DNA of 50,003 bases from a virus (lineage: Duplodnaviria > Heunggongvirae > Uroviricota > Caudoviricetes): the IMG/VR virus record IMGVR_UViG_2609459850_000002; one strand, written 5' to 3'. The stretch's first letter is position 1; each line of letters opens with the position of its first letter. Made by a program: the position numbers. Shown here piece by piece: positions 27,001 through 30,000 of the stretch.

Positions 27001-30000
27001 ATTTCACCGTCAAAGCGTTTTTTGTCCCGTAACGCTAAAGTTACCGTAACTTTATTCTCAAAATTGCGGATCCCTTTCACAATCAGTTCATAGTTTTGAG
27101 TCATTGAATTACTCTCCCCGTGCAGCCTTACGACGGTCCTCTCTGATTTTGAAATACAGGTTAGTCAGATATGTCAGCAGCCCAAACAGCAGACTCCCCA
27201 GCACGCCTATTGCCGCCCACTGAGACGGGGAAACCCTGTCCAGCAACTGCAGGAACCAGTAGCCCGTTCCCACCGCTGACGTGGTGTATGACACACCTGT
27301 TGTGATTTTTTCCATCTGGTACATACCCCGTCTCCCGTTATCCGGAAGCTGACAACAATAAAAAAAGCCACCAGTTAAGTACTGATGGCTCTGATAACTC
27401 ATGCAGGCATCTCAGACGACCCACTGACACTACCGGTGAGTTTAACGATACCTTCCATTTGACTGGCTCACTTTTTATGATGATGCCGGTGCATTTATCT
27501 CCAGCACCAGACTTTCTATCTCAACGCCATACGCTGCATTTTTGGTAATATCCGTCAGCGTCAGCGCATTCAGCCCCAGTGTCAGACTGTCTTTTATGGC
27601 CTGGAATGCCGGGCCAGCCACTCCATTCAGTTTCGGAGTAACCGTGGCACTGCCGGCGGTGAACACCAGCTCCAGCGTCTGCCAGTCGTTACTGTAATTC
27701 CCGAACTCGCCCAACTTTGTGTTTCCGGCTTTCTTGTGATGCATCAGATTCAGTTTGCCGTCTGTGGTCTGGGTGAAGAACGACATCAGGAACGGGTTAC
27801 CAGTCCCGGTCATCGCCACGACGTCAGGTAACGCTACATCGGTATACAGATAAATTCCCAGACCGAACTGGTTGTTGGTCAGTGCGCCTGACAGTCGAAA
27901 CTTACAGCTCAGTCTGCCACCCCGTGTCAGCAGGGAGACTGCGTCATCCACCGGATGCATCAGGGACCAGGTTTTATTGCTCTGCTTGGTAACCTTAAAC
28001 ACACCATCTTCCAGCGCAACACTGCCGCCGGTGATGGTCCAGCCCTGCGCAGCAGCCTCTCCGGCTGTCGGCAGCAGGGAGACTGTACGAACGGATGTGT
28101 CACCATCAGACGGCCCCGATGGCGTGTCGCCGCCGGGCGAGGGTTTAATCTCCGGTGCGGTACCGCTGATGAAGGCGCTGGTTCGACCAACTGCGTTCAG
28201 AATAGCGGTTGCCAGGCGATCCGAAATAATGCCCCTGCGCGCCCATGAACTGAAATGTGTCGGACGATTTGACGATACCCAATTACCATTACTACGGGAT
28301 TGCGCGCCGTAATAACCTGCATCAGCAATATCCGGGTCTTCTGCCGGTAAGTTGGTGGGCGTGTTGTTGCCGTTACCGTCGGTCATGAACGGCACAAAGA
28401 AAACGTTGTCGCTCTCCCTGTTTTTGTACGCGCCGTAGACGGAGTCATACTGTGTGCCGTATGTGTTTTTCCAGTAATACGTCGTGTCGCCACAAATCCA
28501 CGGTATAACTGCAGCACTGCCGCCATGGCACTGCGCGTTAAATCCGGAAAGGTCAGTACGGAACTGCTTCAGCATGGCCGTGAACAGGTCCGGTTGCTGT
28601 GCGTAGGTGGCAGCGCTCATGTCAAATTCGCCCTGCATCCAGCACACCGCCAGCAACACATTTTTCGGGTTCTTCTGTAATGCCGCTTTGGTGCGTGCGA
28701 TCAGGTCCTGATATAACGGTTTACCCACACCCCAGCGTGCCGAATCCTGGCTGGCCCCCGTGTCCGCACTGAATGTCCCCTCCGCGCCCTGGGTGAATGC
28801 CGAACCACCACGACAGCATGGTACCAGCAGGATCCCCGCGTTATTCGGGATATACGGAAGCAGTTTTTTGGCAATATGTAAGCCCTGGCCGACACAGCCG
28901 TACTGCCCTTTGCTCAGGTCTGCCTTCGGATGATTCAGTGCGCTCATATCCTGAACATCATGCAGGCAGTGGTCTGCCGGAATGATGTCGTTAAATGCGC
29001 ATGCTTTACCACCGGGAGTCACTGTGTTGCGACGGGCCAGTTGCTTAATGCGTGGGTGGGGCGCATCGTAAGAATCCGGAAGCGGAAGCCCTTCACCGTA
29101 AGCCATGGCATTGGATTGCCCGGCCAGTACGATGACGTAGTACCACTCCGGCTCAGTTGCACCACTGACGACCACATCACCTTCTGCTGCAATCGCCTGC
29201 ATCAGGGTATAAGGGGTTATGGCCACCGGACTACCAAACGGCTGCCAGCCCTCTTTCAGTTTATGTGTCAGCTTTTCCGCAAGATCTGACGGCGACGCCG
29301 CCCTGACAACATCATAGTGTTTAAATGCCATGGTTCTTTCCACCATCTGAAAAATGATTCTTTAAAATACCTGACATGTAATACAGAAAAAACACAAAAC
29401 CATACCTTAAATAAAAACCTCATCATCAAGCAGATATGCATGGATAAACTACAAGACGAGATATAAACCACCCTGCATTTAAATAAACAATAAACAACAT
29501 CAGAAAAATAATTCTGCTCTATGGTTTACAATCAAAAATATCATTTATACTTTTCAGAACATCACCAGCAAGGCATAAACAAGGAAACTAAATGAAGTGG
29601 ATTGTGATTGATACAGTTATCCAGCCATCATGCGGAATATCTTTTTCAGTCATATGGAGTAAAATAAAATTAATAATCTGGTATCAATCGGATGCTTTCT
29701 TACCTCCTGAAAGTATATTTACACTGACTCACACAGGCATCATGCTCAATAACAAAGTGCTACCTGTAACCATTTACAACGTAGTACCATTCAATAAAAC
29801 ATTATGGAATTTAATCAAAAACAGCCAGGAATGCCCTACAAATACAGATAACGTATTGAATGAATGCTTTAATAACCGTTGCACTCTGCAAATATGTCCT
29901 TATGGGCTAAAACAACAAAGTCCATAAGCAGTTTACTCACATCTGACAAAATCAATATAAACAGCCCCTCCGGAGAGGGGCTGGAGAGTGGCGCTATGTG

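Follow-up and report, generated by a model that had tools for sequence, protein, structure and literature searches.

An iraL gene in an AT-rich tract

The DNA analysed here is a stretch of 50,003 nucleotides (nt) from a virus of the Caudoviricetes (IMG/VR record IMGVR_UViG_2609459850_000002), referred to below, at its full length, as the window. On its plus strand, at positions 29592-29927, it carries an open reading frame (ORF) of 111 amino acids (aa) that lies in a tract of low GC content. An earlier inspection of the sequence alone, hereafter the original prediction, had described this ORF as an orphan with its own promoter, carried as cargo on the strand opposite the late operon. Based on our comparative analysis, the ORF corresponds to iraL, the gene of an anti-adaptor of the response-regulator-like adaptor RssB. 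The features of the gene and of its flanking signals are as follows.

29592-29927, plus strand: iraL coding sequence from the ORF list, 111 aa, ATG start codon, TAA stop codon at 29925-29927
29525-29551, plus strand: sigma-70-type promoter of iraL, from the sequence, 7 nt 5' of the mapped start site
29525-29530, plus strand: -35 hexamer, TTTACA
29546-29551, plus strand: -10 hexamer, TATACT, after a spacer of 15 base pairs (bp) from the -35 hexamer
29559-29591, plus strand: 5' untranslated region of iraL, 33 nt, from the transcription start at A 29559, a published 5' end obtained by RACE (rapid amplification of cDNA ends), to the ATG
29581-29585, plus strand: ribosome binding site of iraL, AAGGA, 6 nt 5' of the ATG
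29962-29983, no strand assigned: GC-rich hairpin CAGCCCCTCCGGAGAGGGGCTG, from the terminator scan, the Rfam alignment and the sequence

The GC content, computed over 300-nt segments, was 0.32-0.35 across 29300-29900 and 0.50-0.60 on both sides. The tract as a whole (29347-29951) has 32.6% GC and the iraL ORF 34.5%, against 52.5% for the entire window; the 111-aa ORF, its AT-rich setting and the good ribosome binding site were thus all correctly recognised in the original prediction.

The predicted protein is identical to IraL of the uropathogenic Escherichia coli strain CFT073 at 110 of 111 residues, and the window ORF is therefore iraL. At the DNA level, the two genes are 99.4% identical over 321 nt, that is, over the first 107 codons, which places the window ORF within the iraL clade as delimited by Hryckowian et al. 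2014 (PMC4045071), i.e., at least 95% nucleotide identity to CFT073 iraL across the whole coding region. The sole difference between the proteins is L71 in the window in place of F71 in CFT073. L71 is also the residue found in Escherichia coli K-12 IraM, and it is the minority allele, present in 7 of 83 iraL copies.

The wider family was recovered by several searches. The NCBIfam model PRK09919 (NF007393, IraM) matched with 162.4 bits against a cutoff of 121, aligning residues 1-110 with positions 1-113 of the 114 in the profile; phrog_4407 matched at 1e-72; and chain A of PDB entry 8TWD, "Anti-adapter protein IraM", was found by phmmer with E = 2.5e-32 over residues 1-78, gapless. NCBIfam, PHROGs and PDB thus all gave matches, and the Pfam search returned no model for the ORF. 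The K-12 IraM protein is 63% identical to the window protein in a gapless alignment of 107 aa, and the genes are 70% identical in nucleotides. RefSeq names the identical DNA "anti-adapter protein IraM", which is a family-level label and does not denote a K-12-type iraM. iraL DNA is present in 1446 of 5426 complete E. coli genomes and also in 280 IMG/VR viral contigs. The description of the ORF as an orphan without recognisable homologue is accordingly refuted.

A chance ORF in an AT-rich spacer, or a decayed remnant that yields no product, would agree with some properties of the locus: GC is equal at the three codon positions (0.34-0.35), giving no compositional coding signal, no Pfam model matches, and when the tract was shuffled 5000 times by dinucleotides, 33 of the shuffles (0.7%) contained an ORF of at least 111 codons, which makes ORF length only modest evidence against chance. 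The pattern of substitution argues otherwise. The ratio of nonsynonymous to synonymous substitution rates (dN/dS, Nei-Gojobori) was 0.126 between iraL and a paralogue from Stx2c phages, 0.165 between iraL and K-12 iraM, and 0.10 between the latter two, with dS above 1, so that purifying selection acts over the three clades. The reading frame is intact in 83 of 83 iraL copies with one polymorphic residue among them, whereas the original prediction had named the absence of conservation in any related sequence as the mark of a random ORF. In addition, the protein matches a crystallised one (8TWD), and genetics and biochemistry have been published on a 99% identical gene. It is because of its homology and dN/dS, and not of its length, that iraL is taken as a real gene; the match to 8TWD, the identity with CFT073 IraL and the dN/dS values led us to reject the chance-ORF explanation, to which we assign practically no probability.

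We consider it very probable that the ORF is iraL in the full sense, i.e., a prophage-borne gene that has its own sigma-70 promoter, is read in antisense to the late operon and encodes an anti-adaptor of the IraM/IraL/RssC family, which stabilises RpoS by binding RssB. iraL is a genuine lysogenic-conversion gene that has already been characterised and is not new.

Transcription signals of iraL

The 5'-RACE product reported from mid-log CFT073, ACATCACCAGCAAGGCATAAACAAGGAAACCA (PMC4045071), corresponds to window positions 29559-29590 with one mismatch at 29589. The same study showed that a native promoter fragment with the -100 to +33 region complemented an iraL deletion. From -100 to +33, the window and CFT073 are identical at 130 of 133 positions (97.7%); the window therefore lies above the 96% identity to CFT073 that delimits the promoter of the iraL clade, contains the start-site sequence, and has an intact TTTACA at -35. 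Its promoter allele is the commonest one, found at 49 of 83 loci, and the promoter and start site are conserved. A minority allele with TTTATA at -35 is present at 6 loci and is probably the "-35 point mutation" mentioned by the authors of PMC4045071.

The promoter hexamers were assigned in our analysis from sequence alone. The generic promoter scan did not report a promoter upstream of the published iraL start, because the spacer there is 15 bp. The scan did return hexamer pairs at 29484-29512 and at 29643-29670, the latter within the ORF; both were discarded as chance occurrences, since 4 pairs were found where 3.2 were expected. The promoter postulated in the original prediction consequently stands in the form of TTTACA and TATACT, 15 bp apart, above the start site at 29559, and the hexamer pairs of the generic scan do not contribute to it.

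Downstream of the gene, the hairpin at 29962-29983 begins 35 nt past the stop codon and is the sole hairpin there. Read on the minus strand, this hairpin serves as intrinsic terminator for a convergent copy of the small RNA (sRNA) STnc100. On the plus strand, it would be at best a weak terminator or a stabiliser of the iraL messenger RNA (mRNA).

Some caveats attach to the identification of the ORF as an iraL gene expressed from this promoter. The 15-bp spacer is suboptimal, and the bases at 29531, 29558 and 29589, in the promoter and leader, are unlike those of CFT073. The terminator scan found no T-run after the hairpin on the plus strand, so the 3' terminus of the iraL mRNA is not defined by the sequence. 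Furthermore, the gene bears the name IraM in RefSeq, but the window ORF falls outside the K-12 IraM clade. Nothing in the evidence, these observations included, contradicts the identification as iraL.

The cargo slot in the late region

The window is a lambdoid prophage that extends from tail fibre to exonuclease, and its coordinates coincide with those of E. coli NCCP15648. The features around iraL are listed here in the direction of late transcription.

32707-33528, minus strand: Q antiterminator (Pfam Antiterm, 2e-49)
31083-32132, minus strand: N6/N4 DNA methylase
30958-31033, minus strand: transfer RNA (tRNA) with CAT anticodon
30874-30950, minus strand: tRNA-Arg (TCG)
30206-30381 and 30417-30610, minus strand: further STnc100 copies
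29953-30141, minus strand: STnc100 sRNA (RF02076), convergent with iraL (cmscan score 132.5 bits, with the gathering score at 47)
about 29332-30005, no strand assigned: variable cargo cassette with the AT-rich tract, iraL with its regulatory region, and the sRNA copy's 3' end (from the YYZ-2008 comparison and composition)
27475-29331, minus strand: nanS-p-like sialate O-acetylesterase, divergent from iraL (Pfam DUF1737, SASA and DUF6645; RefSeq)

A small minus-strand ORF lies between Q and the DNA methylase. STnc100 is arranged in tandem between the tRNAs and iraL as two full copies, which score 132.5 and 138 bits, and a degenerate one that scores 30 bits. The gene nanS-p is the first of the late operon after the cassette and is followed, on the same strand, by genes for an S21-type holin, a DUF1327 protein, a lysozyme and the terminase. 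All late genes next to iraL are thus on the minus strand and iraL is antisense to them, as the original prediction had stated. The window nanS-p is full length: it encodes 618 aa when read from 29331, the start given by RefSeq, and another ATG in the same frame lies five codons upstream, at 29346.

The limits of the cassette were obtained by comparison with the Stx1 phage YYZ-2008, which lacks iraL. Homology between the two ends at 29331, the nanS-p start codon, and resumes at 30006, within an STnc100-type sRNA whose conserved core bounds the insert on that side, and the cassette therefore spans approximately 29332-30005. In YYZ-2008, the gap is filled by 265 bp of unrelated DNA with 54% GC, and stx1 is located just beyond. 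The slot occupied by iraL, between the Q/tRNA/sRNA region and nanS-p, is where Stx phages carry stx.

We surveyed this slot at 82 iraL loci, comprising 80 IMG/VR contigs, one Escherichia albertii locus and one of another E. coli. The start of nanS-p/DUF1737 is located 237-246 bp upstream of the iraL ATG, in divergent orientation, at all 81 loci with enough flanking sequence, and the 3' end of an STnc100 copy is found 26 nt past the iraL stop codon, in convergent orientation, at 82 of 82. The position of iraL between the nanS-p start codon and STnc100 is therefore fixed, in line with the original prediction, which had proposed occurrence at the same slot in other prophages as a check. The tRNAs lie 344 to 3165 bp from iraL, depending on the locus. 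At 28 of the 82 loci, that of CFT073 included, nanS-p is cut to about 125 aa with the iraL cassette intact; the window gene was compared in this respect with positions 19062-19247 of locus L004.

The cassette is an insert that separates genes lying side by side in related phages, and its composition deviates from that of the prophage (32.6% against 52.5% GC). Its promoter would also be active in the lysogen, judging from the promoter and start-site sequence in the window and from the activity reported for CFT073. On most criteria, the exception being a terminator of its own, the iraL cassette is thus a moron, and the proposal that the ORF is lysogenic-conversion cargo is borne out by YYZ-2008, which shares both flanks without iraL.

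Other elements of the prophage are recorded here as side observations. The tRNA with the CAT anticodon was assigned to Met by ARAGORN and to Ile by RefSeq (lysidine-type, like ileZ of Stx phages); this tRNA and tRNA-Arg(TCG) make up the tRNA cluster that is customary in Stx-type late regions. STnc100 has been related to the PasD sRNAs of Stx-type prophages (2026 preprint). A partial "hypothetical protein" annotated by RefSeq at 29998-30123 on the plus strand lies inside the STnc100 copy at 29953-30141 and is probably spurious. In the early region, the type I toxin gene hokD is annotated at 37523-37678 (minus strand), and homologues of dicB, ydfA, ydfB and ydfC are present near 45370-48186; these genes point to a mosaic backbone of the Qin/Rac kind.

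Predicted RssB binding and the IraM/IraL family

The sigma-70 promoter of iraL would drive transcription against the direction of the late operon, so that the lysogen could express the gene whether or not Q-dependent late transcription takes place; expression from the prophage is probably either constitutive or tuned to conditions. The product, a small protein that would reside in the cytoplasm, is predicted to bind and sequester RssB and thereby to prevent this adaptor from handing RpoS (sigma-S) to ClpXP. RpoS would then be more stable even in exponentially growing cells, and expression of the general stress regulon would increase. During lytic growth, Q-antiterminated antisense transcription through iraL would be expected to damp its expression. 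The alpha4-beta5-alpha5 face of the RssB receiver domain also binds sigma-S.

Several of these steps have been studied with CFT073 IraL. Deletion of iraL lowers log-phase RpoS in CFT073 and in Shigella sonnei, and in CFT073 the half-life of RpoS is about 5 min in the wild type and about 2.5 min in the deletion strain (PMC4045071). The interaction of IraL with RssB was demonstrated by two-hybrid and by pull-down/co-purification assays, and the two-hybrid data indicated that IraL binds the N-terminal receiver domain of RssB only, while IraM binds both domains (PMC4045071). iraL levels are up in a CFT073 fur mutant (PMC7157518), and iraL mRNA increases by 1.6 log2-fold on a shift from 23 to 37 °C (PMC12890032). 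By analogy, we infer that the window copy behaves like IraL of CFT073 and S. sonnei in binding RssB and stabilising RpoS.

In the crystal structure of the IraM-RssB complex (Brugger et al., PMC10844676), IraM consists of a beta-barrel together with a hairpin and a helix; it spans the two RssB domains and the segmented helical linker and covers the 4-5-5 sigma-S-binding face. We mapped onto the window protein the RssB contact residues given in that study, which comprise three clusters and P66. Eleven of the 15 contacts are identical, and conservative or semi-conservative substitutions account for the other four. In cluster I, whose partner is the RssB N-terminal domain, identity extends to 5 of 5 positions; in cluster II, which contacts the C-terminal domain, to 3 of 5 (T13S and L75I); and in cluster III, which contacts the linker and alpha8, to 2 of 4 (H63N and I64V). 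P66 is kept. This pattern would fit the binding of IraL to the N-terminal domain only, a connection that we draw from the residues themselves.

The distribution of the substitutions also bears on whether the ORF might be a strict orthologue of K-12 IraM, which would be controlled by PhoP/PhoQ, induced by Mg2+ starvation, and able to clamp both RssB domains. The two proteins belong to the same NCBIfam family and align without gaps at the identity given above, and a sequence resembling a PhoP box, TGTTTA-TTGTT-TATTTA (11 of 12 positions), is present at 29480-29496 on the minus strand, -79 to -63 from the start site, with a similar 11/12 site at the same offset in the Stx2c-phage paralogue. Nevertheless, 4.9% of shuffles reach a score of 11/12, and a simple box scan does not single out K-12 iraM itself, whose best site scores 10/12, a value reached by 27% of shuffles. 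The four contacts that are substituted are those to the RssB C-terminal domain and linker, IraL has been reported to be active in log phase through N-terminal-domain binding only (PMC4045071), and the region upstream of the window ORF cannot be aligned with that of K-12 iraM. Moreover, members of the iraL clade share at least 95% identity among themselves, as do those of the iraM clade, and the two clades do not overlap (PMC4045071); with 70% nucleotide and 63% aa identity to K-12 iraM, the window ORF lies well outside the at least 95% identity to K-12 iraM that delimits the second clade, and membership in it was rejected. Regulation by Mg2+ starvation or PhoP therefore cannot be assumed, and strict orthology with K-12 IraM appears very unlikely.

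Comparison with known systems places the window gene closest to that of CFT073. CFT073 IraL (c1429, formerly ycgW; PMC4045071) has the same length, 111 aa; Hryckowian et al. 2014 (PMC4045071) reported it as about 59% identical to IraM and located it on the potB island. We retrieved this island and found it to be a lambdoid prophage with the order seen in the window, i.e., Q, tRNAs, sRNA, antisense iraL, DUF1737/nanS-p and holin. CFT073 iraL is flanked by tRNAs and a DUF3927 gene on one side and by a truncated DUF1737 gene, then the holin gene, on the other. The CFT073 backbone has an IS200 and the truncated nanS-p, whereas the window has a full-length nanS-p and a DNA methylase after Q.

K-12 IraM (b1160; 8TWD) presumably has its beta-barrel fold in common with window IraL, and the two share all five N-terminal-domain contacts and four C-terminal cysteines. 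They have the same target, RssB, and the same outcome, RpoS stabilisation, but IraM is induced by Mg2+ starvation (PMC10844676) and IraL acts in log phase (PMC4045071). Window IraL has 4 more C-terminal residues, and its gene occupies another genomic site than K-12 iraM, which adjoins attR of e14; no alignment was obtained between the DNA upstream of the two genes. RssC of Salmonella belongs to the same family (PMC4045071). Far more divergent than IraM and IraL are the 33% identical relatives found by tblastn in Pseudescherichia and Enterobacteriaceae UBA7338, which keep the WYQS core and the C-terminal C...C...C...CPYG motif. IraD and IraP reach the same outcome by binding RssB and have no sequence relationship with one another or with IraM (PMC4045071). 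PmrD has an IraM-like fold, the only similar one in the PDB, and binds the receiver domain of a response regulator (PMC10844676), its target being PmrA and not RssB. A PDB sequence search detected no similarity of window IraL to IraD, IraP or PmrD. An iraM-type copy with frameshifts and internal stops in E. coli ECGI0523 (L013, 4001-4318) is a pseudogene, showing that decay sometimes eliminates this family.

We also observed a third clade of the IraM/IraL family. Its members have 107 aa and are 75% identical to IraL and 65% to IraM in aa, and 78% to iraL and 71% to iraM in nucleotides. In phage 2851 (FM180578), the gene is located at 5115-5438 of locus L003 (plus strand), antisense between stx2cB and nanS-p. 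The clade is present in Stx2c and some Stx2a phages, directly downstream of stx2, in a slot next to nanS-p like that of iraL; 236 of 5426 complete E. coli genomes contain it, and phage records often leave it unannotated. The upstream region of the Stx2c-phage paralogue is partly alignable with that of window iraL. Our literature search on this paralogue found no functional study, and a paper on the stx-nanS-p flank (PMC10462455) does not mention it.

Another side observation relates to the C-terminal tail of IraL (residues 81-111, window positions 29832-29927), in which C81, C92, C97, C102 and a CPYG motif are kept in all clades. The four cysteines and CPYG are retained even in the 33% identical relatives from Pseudescherichia and from uncultured Enterobacteriaceae UBA7338 (L011 and L012, 4001-4339). 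The corresponding tail of IraM was removed for crystallography (8TWD) and described as less conserved and flexible (PMC10844676). The conserved four-cysteine tail may have a metal-binding or redox role.

The setting of the gene raises the question of whom it serves. iraL might primarily benefit the phage, with RpoS raising or a PmrD-like action on a response regulator tuning induction or superinfection as a switch that is on in lysogeny and off in lysis. The position of iraL, which at 82 of 82 loci converges with STnc100 and runs against the late transcript, the paralogues beside stx2 in Stx2 phages, and the resemblance of the IraM fold to PmrD only (PMC10844676) would suit such a role. Against it, RssB is the only demonstrated partner of IraL (PMC4045071), and the fixed arrangement may reflect the recent spread of one module that is 98.8-100% identical. 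We regard a primarily phage-serving role as unlikely; it would in any case add to the RssB anti-adaptor mechanism and not replace it. A broader proposal, speculative and only slightly less doubtful, joins these observations. IraM/IraL would be general cargo of the stx/moron slot wired to the state of the prophage, active in lysogeny through a promoter of its own and shut down on induction by Q-antiterminated antisense transcription and convergent STnc100; the third clade beside stx2 would link RpoS control to Shiga-toxin phage biology; and the four-cysteine/CPYG tail would be a metal- or redox-sensing module and not a disordered appendage.

The identification of iraL in the window leaves current understanding unchanged, and its value lies in the correct label: the gene is iraL, neither an orphan nor a K-12-type iraM as its RefSeq name has it. 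The gene also labels, in a lambdoid prophage of the non-Stx kind, the cargo slot equivalent to that of stx. IraL increases the RpoS of growing cells, and it is enriched among uropathogenic E. coli and among Shigella; prophage iraL is therefore a lysogenic-conversion trait that rewires the general stress response of its host.

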